Positions 2,777 through 20,642 of a stretch of DNA of 64,000 bases are shown here, in pieces (position 1 is the first letter of the stretch; each line of letters begins with the position of its first letter). A program made the translations under genes and the position numbers. Under the pieces are notes generated by a model. That model was given only the letters and a program-made list of their open reading frames with translations, was not told the origin of the DNA and ran no database searches. Source of the stretch: Escherichia phage Delraymugoa; the sequence record OR896825.1. One strand, given 5' to 3'.

Positions 2777-5683
2777 ATGGCAGATTTAAGCAGAATCCAA
2801 TTTAAACGTACTAGCACTAAAGGCCGTCGACCTGATGCTGGTACGATGAATCCGGGGGAATTGGCAATCAACCTTGCGGATCAATATCTTCTTACTAAAA
2901 ATGATTCCGGTGCTATTATCAATTTAAGTTGTCCTCCGGTTTATGACAGCGATGTTACAATGGCGGGTAAGGTTAAAGGAAATAATTATATTTTAAGTAA
3001 AACCGCTAATTATTTTGAAGACCAAACCGCGCGAGATCTTAATTATTTTGGTGCGTTTCGACCGAATAATGCTGATGGTTGGTCTAACTTGATTCTGAAC
3101 ATTCCTCATCCCAGCGGTAAAGCACACGGTCGCGGGTTTGAATTTGAATATGGTTCTAGTTCCTCTCAGGTTAAAACCTATGGCTTTGATAAGGATGGTA
3201 ACAAGAGATTCAGCTTTCGCATGTATCACGAAGGTGATAAACCTACCCCATCGGAATTGAACGTTTATAGCAAACAAGAAGTTGACCGCATGTTTGTTAA
3301 AAACGTTAAAATGTCAACTCCTGCTGATGTAAGTAGAGGATATTTCAAAATTGCTACCGCTATGATCCCACAGCAAGGAAGAATGGCATTTATTCGTATC
3401 TATGGTGGTAATGGATATAACGTAAACTATATGGATCAAGTTGACTTTGTAGAAATCGTGATTCGTGGTGGGAATGGAAATCCTAAAGGTGTTAGTATTG
3501 CCGCATATCGACGAAATGCTTTAAATCAGCTTGAAGTATTTGCTATTAATACATCTGGTGATAACTATGATATCTATGTAAAATATGGTCGATACACCGA
3601 TAACGTTATTGTAGAATTTGGAAAAACGGTCGATGTTAATTTAACGGTTCATGATGTTCCGGCTTTTTCGGAAGCAAAACCTGCTGGTACTACCTTTGAA
3701 GGTCGTATTATTACCATGTTCAACACCGAAAACAAAGCAGGAACGTTGATGTTTGATAATAACTCACAAGCAACCTATGATATTGTGAGTCTTAGCAATG
3801 CACCTGATAATAGCCGAAATTATCTGCGTAAATTCCGTAGCAAAGCGAATGAAACAATATGGCATGAAACTGTTCAAGGTGATGTGTATCGTTTGGCTAC
3901 TGGTTCCACCGACCAAAAAGAAGTATTAAAAATTGTTGGTAGTGATGGTTTATTTGTCAATAGACTTCATCTGCAAGGCAATAACGCGATTCGTATGTGG
4001 CGTCCTACTGGTTGTAGTAACTATTTTGAATATATGGATCAGCGAGACGGGGCTAATAAACGTCAAGGGTGGTTTGGTTTTGGTTCTATAGAAACCAACG
4101 ATTTTCAATGGTATAGTGACGAAGGTAAAAACTTTGTTAAGCTAGAAGCAAGTGGTCAAGTATCTTTAAGCGCAGGTGCAACCAAAATTGTATACACTAA
4201 TGGTCAATATGTAGCTGCCAATTCTGATGCATACCGTATGATCTTTGGTAATTATGGTGCATTCTGGCGTAATGACGGCATTAAAGTTTATCTTCTGTCT
4301 ACTGCCGAAAATGATAGATTTGGTGGCTGGAACGGCAACCGACCATTCATTTACGATTTAACAACTGGTAAAGTTACTTTAGGTGGCGACGGTAACGAAG
4401 GCGCATTAGTTCTCGAAAGAGATAGCCGTGCTGCCCGTTTTGTGGGTGACATTTATGTCGGTAACGGAATGTTAACCTTTGATGCCGGACGATTAAATTC
4501 TCGCGATTACTTCCGGTTTAATCATTGGGGTGATAGCAATAACGCGCGTGATAACATCTTACAGCTTGACGATAGCATGGGTGCACACTTCACCACTGAA
4601 CGTACTTTAGCAACTGGTGCGATTAAAACTAAATTCTTCGGTGATTTGGAATCTGCTGGTCAAATTAAATGGGGTAAAGGGACCGCCGCATCTACGTTTA
4701 CTCTACGTGTATGGGGTAACGATAGTCGTAAACAAATATTTGAATGCGGCGATGAAAGCGGGTGGCATTGGTATACCCAACGCGCGGGCGGTCCGGATAC
4801 TTCTGCAATTGAGTTTGCCATCAACGGTACTGTTAAGCCTCAAGCAATTCACACTGGCGGTAATATCACGCTTAACGGTGCTGATATTGAATTTAAACGA
4901 AGCGGTAACAAGCATTTATGGTTTAGAGATCCGAACGGCTTAGAGTTGGGTCTGTTGTACTGCGATGATGCTGGTGTTATGCGTATTCGTGGGGAGAAAT
5001 CGACCGAAGTATGGAAATTCTCAGCAAAACAGATTCATCTGGAAACTGGTACTGCCGGAAATGGTGTAGGCTTGCTTCGTGGTGCTGTAGGTGGTGGCGC
5101 ATGGACTCAATGGCGAGATCGTGGCACTGGCTTGCAGGTTGATTGTCAGCAATCTGAAAACTCAGCGCATAACGTATGGAGAGCTACGCATCAAGGAAAA
5201 TACCACATCGCGGCAATGGGTGTACACGTTCCTGGTGGTACTATCGGAAATGCTATGGTGCGTATTCATGTACACGATGCAACTTTTGACTTTAGCGCAA
5301 CTGGTGATTTCCAAGCAGGTCGTAACGGTAATTTTAACGATGTGTACATTCGTTCTGATGCTCGCCTGAAAATCAATAAGGAAGAGTATAAAGAGAATGC
5401 CACCGATAAAGTTAATCGCTTGACGGTATACACCTATGACAAGGTTAAATCTTTAACCGACCGTACTGTCATTGCTCATGAAGTTGGTATTATTGCTCAG
5501 GATCTTGAGAAAGAATTGCCAGAAGCAGTAACAACCTCGAAGATCGGCGACGGTGATACACCAGAAGAGATCTTAACAATTTCTAACTCTGCTGTCAACG
5601 CTCTTTTAATTAAGGCGTTTCAGGAAATGAGCGAAGAATTGAAAGCCGTTAAAGCTGAACTAGCGGAACTTAAAAAGAATTAA
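2777..5683 (+). CDS. 37: long tail fiber distal subunit gp37-like with C-terminal intramolecular chaperone (peptidase S74-type) domain
   Basis: N-terminus RIQFKR..RP..GELAINL..DSG.II matches gp37; C-terminus has SDARLKINKEEYKENATDKVNRL autocleavage-type motif plus coiled-coil tail. Confidence 0.85.
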   Translation: MADLSRIQFKRTSTKGRRPDAGTMNPGELAINLADQYLLTKNDSGAIINLSCPPVYDSDVTMAGKVKGNNYILSKTANYFEDQTARDLNYFGAFRPNNADGWSNLILNIPHPSGKAHGRGFEFEYGSSSSQVKTYGFDKDGNKRFSFRMYHEGDKPTPSELNVYSKQEVDRMFVKNVKMSTPADVSRGYFKIATAMIPQQGRMAFIRIYGGNGYNVNYMDQVDFVEIVIRGGNGNPKGVSIAAYRRNALNQLEVFAINTSGDNYDIYVKYGRYTDNVIVEFGKTVDVNLTVHDVPAFSEAKPAGTTFEGRIITMFNTENKAGTLMFDNNSQATYDIVSLSNAPDNSRNYLRKFRSKANETIWHETVQGDVYRLATGSTDQKEVLKIVGSDGLFVNRLHLQGNNAIRMWRPTGCSNYFEYMDQRDGANKRQGWFGFGSIETNDFQWYSDEGKNFVKLEASGQVSLSAGATKIVYTNGQYVAANSDAYRMIFGNYGAFWRNDGIKVYLLSTAENDRFGGWNGNRPFIYDLTTGKVTLGGDGNEGALVLERDSRAARFVGDIYVGNGMLTFDAGRLNSRDYFRFNHWGDSNNARDNILQLDDSMGAHFTTERTLATGAIKTKFFGDLESAGQIKWGKGTAASTFTLRVWGNDSRKQIFECGDESGWHWYTQRAGGPDTSAIEFAINGTVKPQAIHTGGNITLNGADIEFKRSGNKHLWFRDPNGLELGLLYCDDAGVMRIRGEKSTEVWKFSAKQIHLETGTAGNGVGLLRGAVGGGAWTQWRDRGTGLQVDCQQSENSAHNVWRATHQGKYHIAAMGVHVPGGTIGNAMVRIHVHDATFDFSATGDFQAGRNGNFNDVYIRSDARLKINKEEYKENATDKVNRLTVYTYDKVKSLTDRTVIAHEVGIIAQDLEKELPEAVTTSKIGDGDTPEEILTISNSAVNALLIKAFQEMSEELKAVKAELAELKKN

Positions 5684-11818: not shown

Positions 11819-12020
11819 ACTTTCCCTCCAAAAATTCTTTCATCAAATAGTCTATCGTTGCTCTGTGTTCTGGTGTGTTTGTTATCTCTGCTAACTTAGT
11901 CAGAGATTCAATAGTGATCCGGTTGGCTTCTTCCATAGTCTCAACGACCATTGGCACAATCTTTTTATTGTTGTACACAAATGCAATATAACCGCCTTCT
12001 GGATATTCTTTCATAATCAA
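11811..12020 (-). CDS. hypothetical protein (69 aa)
   Basis: ORF with 4-nt overlap with gp52 stop. Confidence 0.4.
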   Translation of the reverse strand: MIMKEYPEGGYIAFVYNNKKIVPMVVETMEEANRITIESLTKLAEITNTPEHRATIDYLMKEFLEGKYD

Positions 12021-13363
12021 CCCTTCTTAAGTTCTTTAAGATCTTTCTTATATTCCTTCATTGCGGTCGTCTTTGTCCAATACTCATATTCACTATGATG
12101 TTTATCGGCATCTTTGACCAGTCGATCATACTCTTCTTGAGTAACGCTATACAATGGCATAGAAACTAGCTTATCGGCGTATGGACGCAGTTTTTCATGT
12201 CCATTGATGGATTGCATTACCTCGGCCTTTTTCTTGCCCTGTAGCTCGATTTCGCCCTTAATTACGCGGTCGATAAATTCAGCTTTAGCCATTGCATAAT
12301 TGTATGCTTCCAGTGTTTCCGCTTGCATCAATTCAATGCGTTTATCGACATACCCTAATCGGATTTCGACGAATCGACGGATCAGATCGCTCGCTTTCTC
12401 GAATACTTCAACTAAACCACGTTCATTAACCACTACGATATTCTGGGCTACTAACTGCGTTAGTTTAAAATCCTTCATGATTTGCTCATGTCGAGCGGAT
12501 TCATCTTCGCTTTTGAAATAATCGCGTTTCAGTGTTACTTCAAATCTGAATCCGTCCTTAGAGCAACGGTCATTATACGATACAATCAGATCTTTTTCTT
12601 CCAGTGCATCAAGTACCGCTACATATTCTTCACGGTCGAACTTATAAGGAACTTCTGATATTGTCAGCTTAGTCTTGCCGTTTAGTTCATATGTACCCTC
12701 AAGAATCACACCATCGCGATCATCTCGCGGGATAACTTTACCCGTGAATTTCGGGAATTGAACACTAGGTTCTTTATCCAGTTTTCCGGCAAGTGCTAGC
12801 TCTGTGCATTCAATGAGGCTTTCCAGTGAATGCGGTAAAATGTCAGTTTTATACCCTGTAGCAATACCACTAATACCATTAGCCAATACCATTGGCACAA
12901 CTGGCAAGTAGAACGCTGGCGGGATGTGTTCCAGATCTTCGTGCTTGGGTGCGCAATTCATATCTTTATAGATTTTAAAGAAGTTTTCATGCACGCGAGC
13001 AAAGATATAACGTGCCGCACCTGCTTTCTGGACTAAACGCGATCCGAAGTTACCTTGACCGTCAAGCAGTGGAGTATTATTGCTCCATGTATTCGCCATA
13101 AGTGATCCGGCTTCTACGGCATTAGTTTCCCCGTGGTGATAACCCAACTCGGCAACACCAGATCCAATATCTGCCATCTTACGGAATTTCTTACGGTCGC
13201 CTTTACTCTTTTGCAAAGCACATTCCATAACAAAGCGTTGCACTGGTTTAAGCCCATCTACTAATTGAGGAATCCCGCGTTCCTCGGCAGAATAGATCGC
13301 ATATTCCTTAGCTTCATTATGTACAATGCTTTCAAGGCTGCGGTAAGTAACTGATTTATTCAT
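12017..13363 (-). CDS. 52: DNA topoisomerase II medium subunit gp52 (GyrA-like)
   Basis: DGLKPVQR motif, GVAELGYHHGE, QGNFGSR; start moved to ATG (MNKSV) overlapping GAGGTGA Shine-Dalgarno; T4 synteny. Confidence 0.9.
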   Translation of the reverse strand: MNKSVTYRSLESIVHNEAKEYAIYSAEERGIPQLVDGLKPVQRFVMECALQKSKGDRKKFRKMADIGSGVAELGYHHGETNAVEAGSLMANTWSNNTPLLDGQGNFGSRLVQKAGAARYIFARVHENFFKIYKDMNCAPKHEDLEHIPPAFYLPVVPMVLANGISGIATGYKTDILPHSLESLIECTELALAGKLDKEPSVQFPKFTGKVIPRDDRDGVILEGTYELNGKTKLTISEVPYKFDREEYVAVLDALEEKDLIVSYNDRCSKDGFRFEVTLKRDYFKSEDESARHEQIMKDFKLTQLVAQNIVVVNERGLVEVFEKASDLIRRFVEIRLGYVDKRIELMQAETLEAYNYAMAKAEFIDRVIKGEIELQGKKKAEVMQSINGHEKLRPYADKLVSMPLYSVTQEEYDRLVKDADKHHSEYEYWTKTTAMKEYKKDLKELKKG

Positions 13364-13370
13364 CTTCACC

Positions 13371-13733
13371 TCATACACGCTTACAAATCACATTCTTTAC
13401 TTTATCAGATTTATCAGCCCAATCCAATAGCCATTTTAACGGAAGGATTGACACAATAAACGGGGCAGCAATCAAAGCAAACATGATACACCTGATAATC
13501 AGGAAAACGCAAGTGACAAAACTAGCGATAGTGATCCCGACAAAACAAAATACCATAGAAAACAGAGTAATGATATAGAAAGGCCAGAATACCCACTCCC
13601 GCATCTTAACGCCTTTGTATTCTCTGAATTGCTTAAAATCTACAAACAACTCTCGGATAGACGCGTACAGGACAGAAAAATCATCTTTCATTGCTCTGAA
13701 TGAGCAATCTTCTATTTTAGAATGACCTAGCAT
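13371..13733 (-). CDS. membrane protein (120 aa)
   Basis: Two to three hydrophobic helices (FYIITLFSMVFCFVGITIASFV, IMFALIAAPFIVSIL). Confidence 0.45.
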   Translation of the reverse strand: MLGHSKIEDCSFRAMKDDFSVLYASIRELFVDFKQFREYKGVKMREWVFWPFYIITLFSMVFCFVGITIASFVTCVFLIIRCIMFALIAAPFIVSILPLKWLLDWADKSDKVKNVICKRV

Positions 13734-14415: not shown

Positions 14416-15417
14416 TTAGTAATGGCTAAAACCTTCGGTCACATCTTCAACCACATAGTAACGATGACAGCGCATTTTGGCATTTGCATAATCTTTCGGG
14501 ATACTTACAACGTGACGCGGATCAACTTTGCATTTAATGATTCGGCCTCGTCCACCGCCATAGTGCGGAATATAGTGTTTCGCTGCAACGTGGAGGCCAT
14601 TAGAGCAAGTGCGATCATCATCTGGGTCCACGTCTTTACGCTTCATTTTAACCGTGCGACCTGGGCTATTATCAAACGTATGCGTAAAGAAATCTTTATA
14701 ATCAACATCAACACGTTTCCATGCATAGAAACAACCATCTTCCACGATCTCAATGTCGTTGTGCTCTAAGAAGTCAAATAGACGATCTACGGCCTTACGG
14801 CTAGGGTTTTTCTTGCACTTCTCAAAGAAGTTCAGATAGTGCGTATATGGCTTATTCTCTTTAATCGACTCCACAACTCGACGAGTCAGATTATTATCAA
14901 GAACAATATTATGATAATACACAATACCATTTTCGATACGGAAAGCACCGTGATAATATACTTCAACCGCTTTCTTAATGTCAATCAGCGTAATAGCTTT
15001 GATGAAATCATTATGTTTAATCGCTTCCAGTGCTTCATTAAAGTTAACATGTGATGGATCAGCAGTATAAACAATGTCACCACATGTAATAGTAATAAAC
15101 TTAGTTGAGGCTATGGCTACGATTTTTGAGGAAGTAGTCACGGGCTTTTTTGCGCGTTCACCGCCTTTTCCTTTACTGGTTTTACGGCGTGCTTTACGTT
15201 TTTCTAGTGCCTTACGACCTTCCGCTACTGCGTCTTTCTGAATCAGTAATACGCGGGAAGCAGTACGACGAGATACACCAAATGCTGCCGCAAGTGCTTC
15301 GCGGGTAGTAAACTTACCTTCACCCCACTGTTTAGCCAGTTTGATTTGTTTCGCAGAATCCAGGCATTGAACGTTACGGTCAGAGACGGTGATTTTTGCT
15401 TTAGTCATAGTATTCAT
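14416..15417 (-). CDS. rIIB: rIIB-like protein (333 aa)
   Basis: Directly downstream of rIIA; size close to T4 rIIB; N-terminal HTH-like segment; conserved SRLFDFL..NDIEI.EDG.FYAWK block recalled from rIIB. Confidence 0.7.
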   Translation of the reverse strand: MNTMTKAKITVSDRNVQCLDSAKQIKLAKQWGEGKFTTREALAAAFGVSRRTASRVLLIQKDAVAEGRKALEKRKARRKTSKGKGGERAKKPVTTSSKIVAIASTKFITITCGDIVYTADPSHVNFNEALEAIKHNDFIKAITLIDIKKAVEVYYHGAFRIENGIVYYHNIVLDNNLTRRVVESIKENKPYTHYLNFFEKCKKNPSRKAVDRLFDFLEHNDIEIVEDGCFYAWKRVDVDYKDFFTHTFDNSPGRTVKMKRKDVDPDDDRTCSNGLHVAAKHYIPHYGGGRGRIIKCKVDPRHVVSIPKDYANAKMRCHRYYVVEDVTEGFSHY

Positions 15418-15470
15418 TCCTCTATTAGTTGGGCGACTATCGCCGCCCGATTCACATCATTATACCAGAA

Positions 15471-15602
15471 TTACTTTGCTTCGACAACCTTGCGGATTGT
15501 GCGGTCTGATACATTATAGATTCGTGCCAGTTCGCCTTTAGTCAAGCCGCGAGCGTATTGTTTACGGATGGTTTCTTTCTGGATAGCGGTCAGTTTAGTC
15601 AT
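15471..15602 (-). CDS. small HTH protein (43 aa) between rIIA and rIIB
   Basis: ATG with GAGGTGA Shine-Dalgarno 11 nt after rIIA stop; product MTKLTAIQKETIRKQYARGLTKGELARIYNVSDRTIRKVVEAK has a helix-turn-helix signature. Confidence 0.45.
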   Translation of the reverse strand: MTKLTAIQKETIRKQYARGLTKGELARIYNVSDRTIRKVVEAK

Positions 15603-15613
15603 AATATCACCTC

Positions 15614-17722
15614 TTAAAATTTAACATTCTTAACCAGTTTCATAAAGTCTTGTGCGCGTTTGTCGTTATGCAGAATACGATACCAGTTATCTACAATATC
15701 ATACAGTAACGGGCTATTCTCTTTAAACTTCTCACAAACTGCTTTAATTCGTTCGTTTGCTGCCGTGAATTTTTCATCACAGATCTTTTTAGTTTCTTCG
15801 TCCATAATCCAACGAGTATGAAGGAGTAACTTGGAAACCTCTTTATTATAATGACGACCGTACAGTCTGTCAATAAATTCTGGAATACAGCGTTCTAGTT
15901 CATCGTCATGAAACAACATAGTGATCACACCCAGATATTCGCCATACCCCAGATGATTGGTCTTAACCTTCTTAGCCAGACCAGCCAGCTTACCGCGAAC
16001 AAATTCTAGCGCACATTCCAATTGTTCGTCAACGAGATATTTTTGTGTCTCGTTTCGAGTAATAATATACTTTGTTACCCCGAAGTAGTCAAGCGCCGTG
16101 TGTAATGTATTTTCACTATGGATCGATTTACGACTACGGCTTTCGAATGCATCACCTACGCGGAACATGTGCAAGCCTGATAACTCGCGAATCTCTGCCG
16201 CTTTCATGTGATGGCTGGTTTTATGCCAACTGTCACCAATCTTTTCCATGATATACACGTTAGGCAGCTTAGGAGTCGCTTCACGTTGTGTACGCTCGGT
16301 CTTTTCCGGCTTAACTGCTTTAGCACGCAGATCATCGGCCTCGGACACTTTAATCACGGTCATTTCAGAATCATCATAATACTGTTTGATGTACTCGAAA
16401 GTCTCCATATGTTTTTCGTTGCGCTGACGGAACACAAGTACCTTTTTATTGATGCCGTATTCCTGGACCATACCGTTAAGAGTCAGTGCACGCAGTTTCG
16501 GTTTATCGGTATCATCAATAAGACACGTAATATCTTCTTTATGCATCCATACAAAATGCGTAATGTTGTATTGACTGCTAACGAAAGCAGGGCGCAATTT
16601 ACTGATTGTGTGACGAGTACGATACAGAGTATACACCTGACCTTCTACGTCATTAGGCGAATCTTTACCCGCATTCACAAACTTATTATAGATTGCTACC
16701 GGATCATCCCACTGCCCGATCTTACCCATCTTGCTAATAATATTGCGTTGAGTCGATGAATACTCGCTCATAAATTGCGCAAGTTTACGCTCTGTTTTAA
16801 TGTTGGCGATCTTCTCTTTAACCTTTTCCAACATCATTTCATTGATTTCTGCAATGCGTTTTTCGATGTTCGCTTTAGTCTCAATTGACAAGTGAACTTC
16901 TTCACGCGATGGCATCAGGTCCAGATCACCCAACTCAAAATTAATGTAAATGGTCTGGTGCTGGCGGTTTACAGCTTCTAACCATGTTCCGCGAACATAT
17001 TCATACGGGATCGGGTACTGGATCTTACCCATGATTGCATATACCACATAGGAATCGTTATCACGCCCATTACAAACATAATAATTATCAAAGCTAGGGA
17101 AATAATTAATTTCGATTGCATTGATATTAGGTTTGTGTTCCCCAAAATGACGCAGTACAAACTGTGCTTCTCGATGCCATGTCTGAATATCTTTCTCTTT
17201 CACCGGAATAGTGATTTTCAGACCATTGTCTTCATATGTCGGTTCGTCGAAAATCTGCACCATTTTCGGCATCGAGTTTTGCACAAATGCCGTAAAGCCA
17301 TAAGCGCGACCATTGTAATAGTTTACGATTGTAAAGGTGTCGGTATAGCTATAAGCAGACTTCGCACCCAAACCAAAAGACCCGATATAGTCATTAGTCT
17401 GGTCTTTTGTTGATTCAAAGTAAACCGTAAACAGTTGTTCTAATTCTTTCTTAGACGGAATACCAGTACCATAATCACGCACAGAAAAATACGGTTCGAT
17501 TGCAGTCGGTAAATGAATATCAAACGGACGATCTAAGGTTCCGGCTTCTTTGTGAGTGTCGGTAGCATTGCACGAATACTCACGGACGCAAGCACGCTCA
17601 CAATATTGATAAGTGTTCTTAGAAAGCACCATAAAAGCCTTGCTACTTGCTTTCAGTGAAAAATCAACCGCACCGCTCAAGTCACTGCCAAATACTTCTT
17701 CATTATCAATATGCATTTTCAT
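15614..17722 (-). CDS. rIIA: rIIA protein (702 aa) with GHKL-type ATPase-like N-terminal region
   Basis: GSFGLGAKSAYSYTDTFTI motif as in T4 rIIA; length and position upstream of rIIB. Confidence 0.85.
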   Translation of the reverse strand: MKMHIDNEEVFGSDLSGAVDFSLKASSKAFMVLSKNTYQYCERACVREYSCNATDTHKEAGTLDRPFDIHLPTAIEPYFSVRDYGTGIPSKKELEQLFTVYFESTKDQTNDYIGSFGLGAKSAYSYTDTFTIVNYYNGRAYGFTAFVQNSMPKMVQIFDEPTYEDNGLKITIPVKEKDIQTWHREAQFVLRHFGEHKPNINAIEINYFPSFDNYYVCNGRDNDSYVVYAIMGKIQYPIPYEYVRGTWLEAVNRQHQTIYINFELGDLDLMPSREEVHLSIETKANIEKRIAEINEMMLEKVKEKIANIKTERKLAQFMSEYSSTQRNIISKMGKIGQWDDPVAIYNKFVNAGKDSPNDVEGQVYTLYRTRHTISKLRPAFVSSQYNITHFVWMHKEDITCLIDDTDKPKLRALTLNGMVQEYGINKKVLVFRQRNEKHMETFEYIKQYYDDSEMTVIKVSEADDLRAKAVKPEKTERTQREATPKLPNVYIMEKIGDSWHKTSHHMKAAEIRELSGLHMFRVGDAFESRSRKSIHSENTLHTALDYFGVTKYIITRNETQKYLVDEQLECALEFVRGKLAGLAKKVKTNHLGYGEYLGVITMLFHDDELERCIPEFIDRLYGRHYNKEVSKLLLHTRWIMDEETKKICDEKFTAANERIKAVCEKFKENSPLLYDIVDNWYRILHNDKRAQDFMKLVKNVKF

Positions 17723-17736
17723 AATATAATCCTCAC

Positions 17737-17994
17737 TTAATTAAAATCTTCTTTGTCCATCTCTGCGTAGATTACATCCCACGCCCATAAATCAATAAAC
17801 GCATTATATGTCACGGTGCAATCGTTGTCAATCACTTCTTTCGCATATTTCTTGATGTTTTCGTAGGAAACTTGCGGGTCAATTTTGTGTTTACGAAGGT
17901 GCGCATATTCATATCTCAGACATTTCATAAACAGGTCCATCGATTTCTTTTCTCGATGACACTTGGCGATCATAAAATCAAAACTTCGACTCAT
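17737..17994 (-). CDS. hypothetical protein (85 aa)
   Basis: ORF immediately upstream of rIIA. Confidence 0.45.
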   Translation of the reverse strand: MSRSFDFMIAKCHREKKSMDLFMKCLRYEYAHLRKHKIDPQVSYENIKKYAKEVIDNDCTVTYNAFIDLWAWDVIYAEMDKEDFN

Positions 17995-18818: not shown

Positions 18819-20642
18819 TTATGATTGCATCCAAATTTTGCGCTGATCTGCATCTTCACTATAGAGCAAATCGAATAGCTCTTTATAGTTTTCCGGTAAC
18901 GTGATGATCTCCATGACAGGATCGTTGATCACGCGATGATAGTCTGATTCTGTGAGCGATGCTAAACCTTTGATATATCGAATGCTATAACCTTTGATAT
19001 TATCTCGGTCGTTCTCGAAATCTTCTAGGTCATAATACCATCGAACATCATCACCTTTCTTTGGTTCCGCAATGATAATAGGTGTTTTGATAAACCGGAT
19101 TCGTCCATCTTCGAACAATTCAGGCCAACGTGCAAAGAAAGAGATCAGACTAGGTTTAATAGACCCGATCCCGTCAGTATCAGCGTCGGTCATAATCGCA
19201 ATATTTTTGTATTGCATAACTTCCAATGCATCAACACCAAATTGCAAGCCAGTGATCGCCATGATGTTAAAAATTTCGGCGTTCTTAACGATCTTTGCCT
19301 CCGGTTGTTCCCACGTTGTAAGAGTTTTGCCTCGCAACGGGAAACCTCCATGTAAATCTTGATCGCGTACAGAGATCAGATAGTTGATCGCGGAATCACC
19401 TTCCGTCAAAAACAGGGTAGTTTCTGCGTCAGTTCCAATAAGGTTAGCTTTAACGTGTTTTGCCACCTTAGCCCGTTTCGCTGCCTTTGCTGCCTTAGTC
19501 GCTGCCGCTTTATCTGCTGCCTCTTTGCGTGCCAGGACTACAGCAATAATAGGCATGATAATGTTTTCTTTCTTAGCAATGGCTTTAGCCAGCTTTTTAA
19601 AATCAAGATCAATATGACGCTTGATATCACCAGTTGGATTAGTCAATCGTTCTTTTGTCTGTGAATCAAAACGAAGGTTAGGCAATTCACGAACAATAAG
19701 AATACAGGTCAATCCAGACTTAACCGCAGCTTTAGTAACATCAACCTTATATTCTTTCTTGATTCGTTTTACAATCTCTTCACAAAGATCATCTGTCACA
19801 TAATCAACGTGTGTTCCCCCGTTTTTGGTAAACAGACCATTAGCAAAGGATACTGATTTAAAACCTTCTCCCTCGACCGCAGGAACTAGGGCAAGTGAAA
19901 AGTTTTTATCTTCAATGACAAACGGATCATCATTGTATAGTTTAGCATAATCCTTGAACTTACTAACAATACGTTTACCATTAAACTTAAACGTGATCTT
20001 AGGAAAGATTACGCTCAATGATTGCAGACGATCATGAACAATATCTAAAACAGAGTTGTCCATCATATAACCTTCGAAGTGGTCGAAGTCTGGACAAAAT
20101 GTAACCTTCGTTCCCTTCAATTTTGATGGTTTTGATGACCATGTGATATTTTCAGCACCGTTTGTGCACTGTACGGTCATTTCTGTTTCGCCGTCACAGG
20201 TCACACCAGTAAACCAATCGCTAAAGAAATTTGACAACGACGACCCCACACCGTTCATCCCTTGCGTTAATCGATTGGTATCATCAAAGTTAGACCCTGC
20301 TTTTGTTCGTGTCCATGCGGCTACAGGTTGCGGAATCTGCGTGCCCTCTGGGGTAGTAACCATATGTTGAGGAATACCGCGACCATTGTCTGTTACCGTA
20401 ACAATATTGTTTTGGATATCGACGCTAATCACATTGGCAAATTCAAAATTAGTGCGGATCGCCTCGTCTACAGAGTTGTCGATAATCTCATCAATGATTT
20501 TAACCAGCCCAGGAACATATGAAATTTTTGTCCATTTACCGAACAGGAAACGTTGATGTTCTTCGTAAGTTGTTGATCCTATATACATTCCTGCACGCTT
20601 AAGGACATGTTCACGATCAGATAAAATGCGGAACTCACTCAT
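18819..20642 (-). CDS. 39: DNA topoisomerase II large subunit gp39 (GyrB-like ATPase, fused gp39+gp60 form)
   Basis: GHKL/GyrB N-terminal motifs; 607 aa is about T4 gp39+gp60 combined; T4 synteny. Confidence 0.9.
   Translation of the reverse strand: MSEFRILSDREHVLKRAGMYIGSTTYEEHQRFLFGKWTKISYVPGLVKIIDEIIDNSVDEAIRTNFEFANVISVDIQNNIVTVTDNGRGIPQHMVTTPEGTQIPQPVAAWTRTKAGSNFDDTNRLTQGMNGVGSSLSNFFSDWFTGVTCDGETEMTVQCTNGAENITWSSKPSKLKGTKVTFCPDFDHFEGYMMDNSVLDIVHDRLQSLSVIFPKITFKFNGKRIVSKFKDYAKLYNDDPFVIEDKNFSLALVPAVEGEGFKSVSFANGLFTKNGGTHVDYVTDDLCEEIVKRIKKEYKVDVTKAAVKSGLTCILIVRELPNLRFDSQTKERLTNPTGDIKRHIDLDFKKLAKAIAKKENIIMPIIAVVLARKEAADKAAATKAAKAAKRAKVAKHVKANLIGTDAETTLFLTEGDSAINYLISVRDQDLHGGFPLRGKTLTTWEQPEAKIVKNAEIFNIMAITGLQFGVDALEVMQYKNIAIMTDADTDGIGSIKPSLISFFARWPELFEDGRIRFIKTPIIIAEPKKGDDVRWYYDLEDFENDRDNIKGYSIRYIKGLASLTESDYHRVINDPVMEIITLPENYKELFDLLYSEDADQRKIWMQS

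Follow-up and report, generated by a model that had tools for sequence, protein, structure and literature searches.

A conserved free paralogue of the RIIB N-terminal helix-turn-helix module between rIIA and rIIB of Krischvirus-like phages

To our knowledge, how the rIIA and rIIB genes work is still unexplained, more than 60 years after they defined the cistron. The 64,000-nucleotide stretch of Escherichia phage Delraymugoa DNA analyzed here (the window; record OR896825.1) is from a Krischvirus (RB49-like, Straboviridae), and its rII locus, which is 97.5–98.8% identical to that of 57 Krischvirus genomes, has a short open reading frame between these two genes. The locus raises the questions of whether the frame is a gene, what its product is related to, and what that product might do beside RIIA and RIIB.

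The frame (hereafter, the mini-gene) occupies 15471..15602 on the minus strand, with its ATG at 15602-15600 and its TAA at 15473-15471. Its 43 codons specify a mini-protein, MTKLTAIQKETIRKQYARGLTKGELARIYNVSDRTIRKVVEAK, of 5.0 kDa and pI 10.4 that has 11 K+R versus 4 D+E and hence a net charge of +7. The original prediction of a 43-codon ATG frame had these coordinates exactly right and left the strand unstated. The upstream cistron is the rIIA homologue (702 aa; 15614..17722, minus strand; stop TAA at 15616-15614), which is annotated as RIIA in relatives and weakly resembles GHKL ATPases (HATPase_c_3, E 0.003). The 11-nt spacer between the two genes (15603..15613, minus strand) reads GAGGTGATATT, which bears out both the predicted distance from the rIIA stop and the predicted GAGGTGA Shine-Dalgarno sequence; the latter lies at 15607-15613 on the minus strand, its last base separated from the ATG by 4 nt (TATT) and its GAGG core by 7 nt. 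The spacer contains neither a promoter nor a hairpin, which makes the mini-gene part of the unit in which rIIA is transcribed and translated.

The gene had been taken to be unannotated, which proved incorrect: public Krischvirus records carry it as a 132-nt CDS, as in RB49 (RB49p274, NP_891845.1), KFS-EC (YP_010097294.1), GoldenSnicker (WWD12813.1) and GEC-3S (YP_009118959.1). The usual label, in RB49 and about 50 other records, is ‘hypothetical protein’; that in phage W115 (USL84180.1) is ‘DNA binding HTH domain protein’. The mini-protein is 98–100% identical to the annotated CDS products and belongs, with no difference, to the same family as RB49p274 and PHROG 15481 (category ‘unknown function’), to which it matches over residues 1-43 on profile positions 1-43 of 43 (3e-34, 117.7 bits). 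Two plus-strand open reading frames, 15346..15519 and 15389..15541, overlap the region and are antisense by-products, because the conservation pattern fits the minus-strand frame. A 32-aa protein, P0108 (MTKLTAIQKETIRFHFSRGLTKCDVSRMYNFS), shares its first 13 residues with the mini-protein and is diverged in the rest; it appears to be a fragment with a frameshift or other error, derived from a short assembly, and not a true variant.

The mini-gene is a genuine gene under strong purifying selection. Conservation of the frame in relatives, which the original prediction had named as a check, extends to all 57 close relatives and to four diverged lineages, in none of which is the frame interrupted. 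In the 57 Krischvirus records the gene is intact, with residues 1-43 aligned and at least 95% protein identity, and a protein search returned 43-aa homologues only (69–98% identity). The four further lineages in which it lies between rIIA and rIIB are metagenomic (L006, L010/L011, L013 and L007), and the identity of their rIIB to that of the window is 54% for L006, 63% for L010/L011 and ~60% for L013. Across all five lineages a length of 43–45 codons (45 aa in L010/L011) is kept at saturated synonymous sites, which puts the frame beyond chance. Nei-Gojobori counts for the mini-gene between lineages gave a pN of 0.07–0.24 versus a pS of 0.51–0.86, the latter saturated. Identity between the same genomes is 71–88% for the mini-protein, 33–46% for rIIA and 54–67% for rIIB, making the mini-protein the best conserved of the three. 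Among six database sequences, 28 of its 43 positions are invariant, including all of TKGELAR.YNVSDRTIR.VVE and nearly all of helices 2 and 3.

The compact helix-turn-helix (HTH) that had been proposed for the product is supported by both profile and model. The Pfam family CENP-B_N (PF04218) matches residues 2-43 at 26.0 bits, above its curated cut-off of 21.2 (E 7e-6), and is the precomputed label on all five database homologues; an AlphaFold2 model (pLDDT 85.8) predicts three helices, at residues 6-18, 22-28 and 33-41. Many other HTH families match weakly, 18 Pfam families being listed at E≤1. The more specific resemblances that had been proposed fared worse. Sigma-70 region 4 (PF04545) scored 21.1 bits, below its cut-off of 24.1, and neither region 2 nor region 3 is present, so that the likeness is that of HTHs in general; and no Fis-type family was among the 18, in a search whose HMMER filters drop most matches above about E = 0.1. 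A search of NCBIfam gave nothing above cut-off, and a sequence search of solved structures returned no RIIB and, for the mini-protein, no match of use (2lvs being the best, at E 0.13).

In Foldseek searches the nearest structures to the predicted mini-protein were DNA-bound domains, namely those of IstA transposase (TMq 0.72–0.80, rmsd 0.7–0.9 Å over 33–37 residues) and CENP-B (1hlv, TMq 0.81), with gamma-delta resolvase and NarL/LuxR-type domains also among the nearest; the E-values were weak (0.1–1) because the query has only 43 residues. The predicted fold superposes on the CENP-B_N, IstA and resolvase HTHs, but these are parts of large DNA-processing proteins, whereas the mini-protein, at 17–28% sequence identity, is the domain alone, without a catalytic or second DNA-binding domain. 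Fold, charge and family together suggest that the mini-protein would bind DNA. HTH folds can also serve protein-protein contacts.

Judged by sequence, the mini-protein is a paralogue of the N-terminal HTH module of RIIB, and a more canonical one than the module in the resident rIIB. Outside Krischvirus, the best tblastn matches among 50,697 phage genomes searched were rIIB N-termini (52% identity over 40 aa) from Jiaodavirus, Slopekvirus, Dhakavirus and others, and the mini-protein aligns column for column with the RIIB N-termini of T4, PKO111 and Bp7, the comparison that the original prediction had proposed. An independent profile was built from 34 rIIB N-termini, leaving out all mini-proteins and all Krischvirus-clade rIIBs. 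It gave 45.6 bits with the mini-protein of the window (E 2e-16 at Z=1) and 44–48 bits with the other mini-proteins, versus 10.5 bits for the best of 2,000 shuffles. These data strongly support the earlier suggestion of a duplicated and separated copy of the rIIB N-terminal module. The resident rIIB modules scored lower on the same profile (37.8 bits for this phage, 33.2 for L010, 31.9 for L013), and their mean identity to the 34 outgroup modules was 0.31–0.32, versus 0.37–0.40 for the mini-proteins. In a six-frame translation of the 64-kb window the profile matched the mini-gene and rIIB, and no further copy of the module was found.

The two members of this pair have evolved at different rates. 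Between the same lineages the mini-protein is 84–87% identical versus 64–71% for the resident module, which thus evolves about twice as fast in amino-acid terms; helix 3 is conserved in it as well. The resident recognition helix reads VSRRTASRV versus the usual VSxRTI(R/G)RV, and there is also a one-residue insertion. The mini-protein shares with the RIIB module of T4 and other Straboviridae the ~40-aa motif (K/C)L(T/D)xxQKxxIxxxYxxGx(T/S)KxELAxxYxVSxRTIRRV, the predicted three-helix fold and the place directly after rIIA. It differs in being a separate cistron that stops after helix 3, with neither linker nor RIIB core, and in coexisting with a complete rIIB that bears its own, more diverged module. 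The mini-protein stops at residue 43 (TAA) and has no RIIB core (Pfam PF26926, Phage_T4_rIIB), so that it counts as a paralogue of a single RIIB domain and not as an RIIB.

The resident rIIB homologue (14416..15417, minus strand; 333 aa from the first ATG) matches PHROG 609, RIIB (3e-106), and is annotated in relatives. Its HTH module covers residues ~14-62 (15232..15378, minus strand), as delimited by the alignment, the 37.8-bit profile match and an AlphaFold2 model of this rIIB (pLDDT 86.7). The model places the HTH helices at residues 21-32, 39-45 and 50-59, arranged as in the mini-protein, and shows the HTH as a unit of its own, tethered to the core by a basic helix of some length (61-81) and then by disordered residues (84-95). 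Two start codons come into question for rIIB: the longest open reading frame begins at the ATG at 15417 (MNTMTKAK...), and relatives annotate an ATG 9 nt downstream, at 15408, which gives 330 aa. The second ATG is more plausible because the Shine-Dalgarno GAGG is 10 nt from it, versus only 1 nt from the first. The Pfam copy used here gave no RIIB family for rIIB and evidently predates that family, since the precomputed label on all homologues is PF26926.

The two sides of the mini-gene are built differently. On the rIIA side, the gap is 11 nt in the window, 4 in L006, 10 in L010, 16 in L013 and 11 in L007; in all five lineages these 4–16 nt hold a Shine-Dalgarno sequence (GAGGT in L010, L013 and L007; a weaker GGTGA in L006) and nothing else, neither promoter nor hairpin. 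Co-expression of the mini-gene with rIIA is likely from this anatomy. On the rIIB side, all five lineages have a gap of 52–78 nt (53 nt in the window) with a GC-rich hairpin and a sigma-70-type promoter. This hairpin-plus-promoter element before rIIB lies at 15431-15487 (minus strand) in the window, 4615-4684 in L006, 3949-4000 in L010, 1712-1789 in L013 and 2705-2769 in L007, and also occurs at 3918-4000 in the outgroup L014. The promoter in the window (15459..15487, minus strand; TTGTCG, 17 nt, TATAAT, with a TG extended −10) has its −35 inside the last codons of the mini-gene (V-V-E); GEC-3S annotates the same rIIB promoter with −35 and −10 signals, and TTCTGGTATAATG is conserved in L006.

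The hairpin in the window, GGGCGGC-GAUA-GUCGCCC (15431..15448, minus strand), lies in a region with a minimum free energy of −17.9 kcal/mol (z = −3.3). Equivalent hairpins of 7–9 bp and different sequence are present in L006, L010, L013, L007 and L014, the stems by lineage being GGGCGGC/GUCGCCC, GCGCCUC/GGGGCGC, GCGCCC/GGGCGC and GCGUCCUG/CAGGACGC. Relative to the −10, the hairpin is placed downstream in the window and L006 and across the hexamer in L013 and L007, whereas in L014 it is upstream of the entire promoter. It probably acts as a 3′-end or processing structure for transcripts of rIIA, with or without the mini-gene. A fusion of the mini-gene with rIIB by read-through or frameshifting was considered and rejected: the start codons are 185 nt apart, so that the frames differ, and the promoter and hairpin stand between.

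Farther upstream, in the 3′ end of rIIA, is a perfect TTGACA-17-TATAAT (15845..15873, minus strand) whose −35 starts 271 nt upstream of the mini-gene ATG, and near-consensus counterparts occur 223–235 nt upstream of the mini-gene in L010 (12/12), L013 (11/12) and L007 (10/12). The site is a candidate for an early promoter within rIIA that would serve the mini-gene and perhaps rIIB, and it recalls the known rIIB promoters of T4, which are likewise situated inside rIIA. A second perfect TTGACA-17-TATAAT is present upstream of rIIA, at 17803-17831 on the minus strand. The rII genes themselves lie between genes for topoisomerase II subunits, gp39-like (607 aa; 18819-20642, minus strand) and gp52-like (453 aa; 12017-13378, minus strand), which flank them in all relatives examined.

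In the usual architecture, found in T4, Jiaodavirus, Dhakavirus and most metagenomic rIIBs, rIIA is followed after a short gap by an rIIB composed of the HTH, a variable basic linker and the conserved core. The gap in T4 is 11 nt, as for the mini-gene; on the circular T4 map the rIIA stop is at 12 and the ATG of rIIB at 168903. By its position, then, the mini-gene occupies the ancestral rIIB start slot and is part of the rIIA unit, because its gap is T4-like and the hairpin and promoter stand only before rIIB. The free copy is absent from L014 (whose rIIB is 43% identical), T4, PKO111 and Bp7, and from the distant L017, L018 and L019. The rIIB of the last three lacks a detectable HTH; neither they nor L014 show the split architecture, there being no free HTH gene and rIIA abutting rIIB. 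On this distribution, the free module is a synapomorphy of a Krischvirus-like clade. A recent tandem duplication of the resident module was rejected as its source, since the nearest relatives of the mini-protein other than mini-proteins are the Tevenvirinae rIIB N-termini (PKO111 53%, Bp7 47%, T4 42%) and not the resident module. Either the module was duplicated long ago and the resident copy then diverged, or the free module is a retained stump of the old gene, the remainder of which gave way to a foreign promoter-plus-rIIB cassette; ~40 residues cannot decide between these two histories.

The reading that we prefer, with a probability of about 0.55, is that the mini-gene functions as an early gene in those T4 relatives that are Krischvirus-like, and that its product, a very basic three-helix HTH, is a paralogue of the RIIB N-terminal module that acts in the RII system. 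According to this proposal, an extra RIIB-type module would have become a cistron of its own in the slot directly after rIIA, and one mRNA would yield both its product and RIIA, perhaps through translational coupling, with the promoter at 15873..15845 inside rIIA perhaps adding mini-gene transcripts. The mini-protein would then act in trans as a DNA-contacting part of the RII system. The two modules may have subfunctionalized, the free one retaining the ancestral recognition helix and the resident one in RIIB drifting toward another specificity. The invariant recognition helix of the mini-protein suggests a conserved target, and the specificity of the resident module has probably shifted; early co-expression with rIIA is what the anatomy points to, and a role in the rII pathway is what we infer from linkage and homology only. 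In T4, B function on K(lambda) can dispense with the beginning of the rIIB cistron (the Crick/Brenner frameshift region; deletion r1589). This would suggest that the classical rII phenotype does not require the module, so that the role of the free module may lie outside Rex evasion. A more specific form of the proposal is a natural split of RII, in which the ancestral DNA-recognition module is supplied in trans with RIIA and the resident RIIB carries a module of new specificity; this we put forward tentatively and regard as doubtful. Were it true, DNA targeting by RIIB would be a separable function, open to study alone, and the mini-protein might also modulate how RIIB-sensing host defenses see RIIB.

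Other roles outside such a complex were weighed. The mini-protein could be a stand-alone transcription factor acting at a specific operator, such as the rIIB promoter that overlaps the 3′ end of the mini-gene or other early promoters. This would accord with its HTH fold and charge and with the lie of the rIIB promoter, which has its −35 in the last mini-gene codons and an inverted repeat beside or over its −10 in every lineage. A comparative-genomics study treats rIIB as a specific transcription factor (PMC7824862), and RB49 has neither MotA nor middle promoters (PMC1524935), so that unknown regulators could have a place there, although this is no pointer to the mini-protein. The inverted repeats, however, vary wholly in sequence and also in position, while the recognition helix SDRTIRKVVE is invariant; L014 has an inverted repeat, upstream of the promoter, yet is without a mini-gene; and no conserved candidate site was found. 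The inverted repeat was accordingly rejected as an operator, an RNA hairpin being likelier because pairing is kept as stems and positions vary, and the transcription factor as a whole seems unlikely to us.

To a similar degree unlikely is a decoy or modulator, i.e., a free module that competes with the RIIB N-domain for DNA or for a protein (RIIA or a host sensor) and so tunes RII or masks RIIB. Such a modulator would be selectable given that RIIB, which counters RexAB, triggers a bacterial gasdermin/CARD defense and is toxic when expressed alone (bioRxiv 10.1101/2023.05.28.542683), and the mini-protein is a paralogue of the RIIB N-module that departs less from the canonical type than the resident copy does. 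There is, however, no indication of which part of RIIB is sensed, and the differing recognition helices (RRTASRV in the resident module, DRTIRKV in the free one) speak against simple competition for the same site. Less likely still is a small adaptor subunit that binds co-translated RIIA and no nucleic acid. The tight spacing to the rIIA stop (4–16 nt, with a Shine-Dalgarno sequence) and the separation from rIIB by hairpin and promoter in five lineages would suit such a subunit, but rIIA is only 33–46% identical where the mini-protein is 71–88% identical, and a net charge of +7 and closest folds that are all DNA-bound domains do not favor it. Very improbable, finally, is a scar without function, in which the mini-gene would be what remains of the 5′ end of an old rIIB whose other parts gave way to a foreign rIIB, and would be an open reading frame only in the calls of gene finders. 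The mini-gene does sit exactly at the T4-type rIIB start position, and its product is more like Tevenvirinae rIIB N-termini than the resident module is; but the frame of 43–45 codons, the strong Shine-Dalgarno sequence and the 71–88% identity have been kept despite saturated synonymous sites and flanking genes at 33–67%. The selection data effectively refute a scar without function; an origin as a stump is compatible with present function.

Nothing turned up in the searchable literature on the mini-gene open reading frame or on a split RIIB, and no report of translation, DNA binding or a phenotype for the mini-gene or the RIIB N-module. The gene itself is already in databases; what appears to be undescribed is the free paralogue of the RIIB N-module, its conservation above that of rIIA and rIIB, and the variation in module copy number. 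The mini-gene shows the RIIB N-terminal HTH to be an independent, duplicable module; in one clade its free, 43-aa form is constrained more strongly than rIIA or rIIB. The 5-kDa peptide would offer a simple handle on what the RIIB HTH binds, and ‘RIIB N-terminal-like HTH protein’ can take the place of the label ‘hypothetical protein’ that about 50 Krischvirus genomes carry.

The number of modules at the rII locus ranges from one, through one plus a free copy, to three plus a free copy. The last case is L006, whose rIIB (P0009, 459 aa; L006 4685-6064) has three tandem HTH modules before the conserved core, at residues ~1-42, 56-99 and 142-185 (modules 2 and 3 being 65% identical), as well as the free mini-gene upstream. 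In an exhaustive profile search with the mini-protein family, the best matches other than mini-proteins were proteins with 2–7 tandem modules, at 40–90 bits summed over copies. These have the same module type as the mini-protein and differ from it in their length of 180–720 aa. The module type is thus widely reused, and the matches are mostly unrelated multi-HTH repeat proteins, not other free rIIB-type modules. The rIIB core was found in 1 of the 149 members of this tandem-module set (P0075-P0223), and the same search returned a few free versions of 49–60 aa (P0146, P0202 and others).
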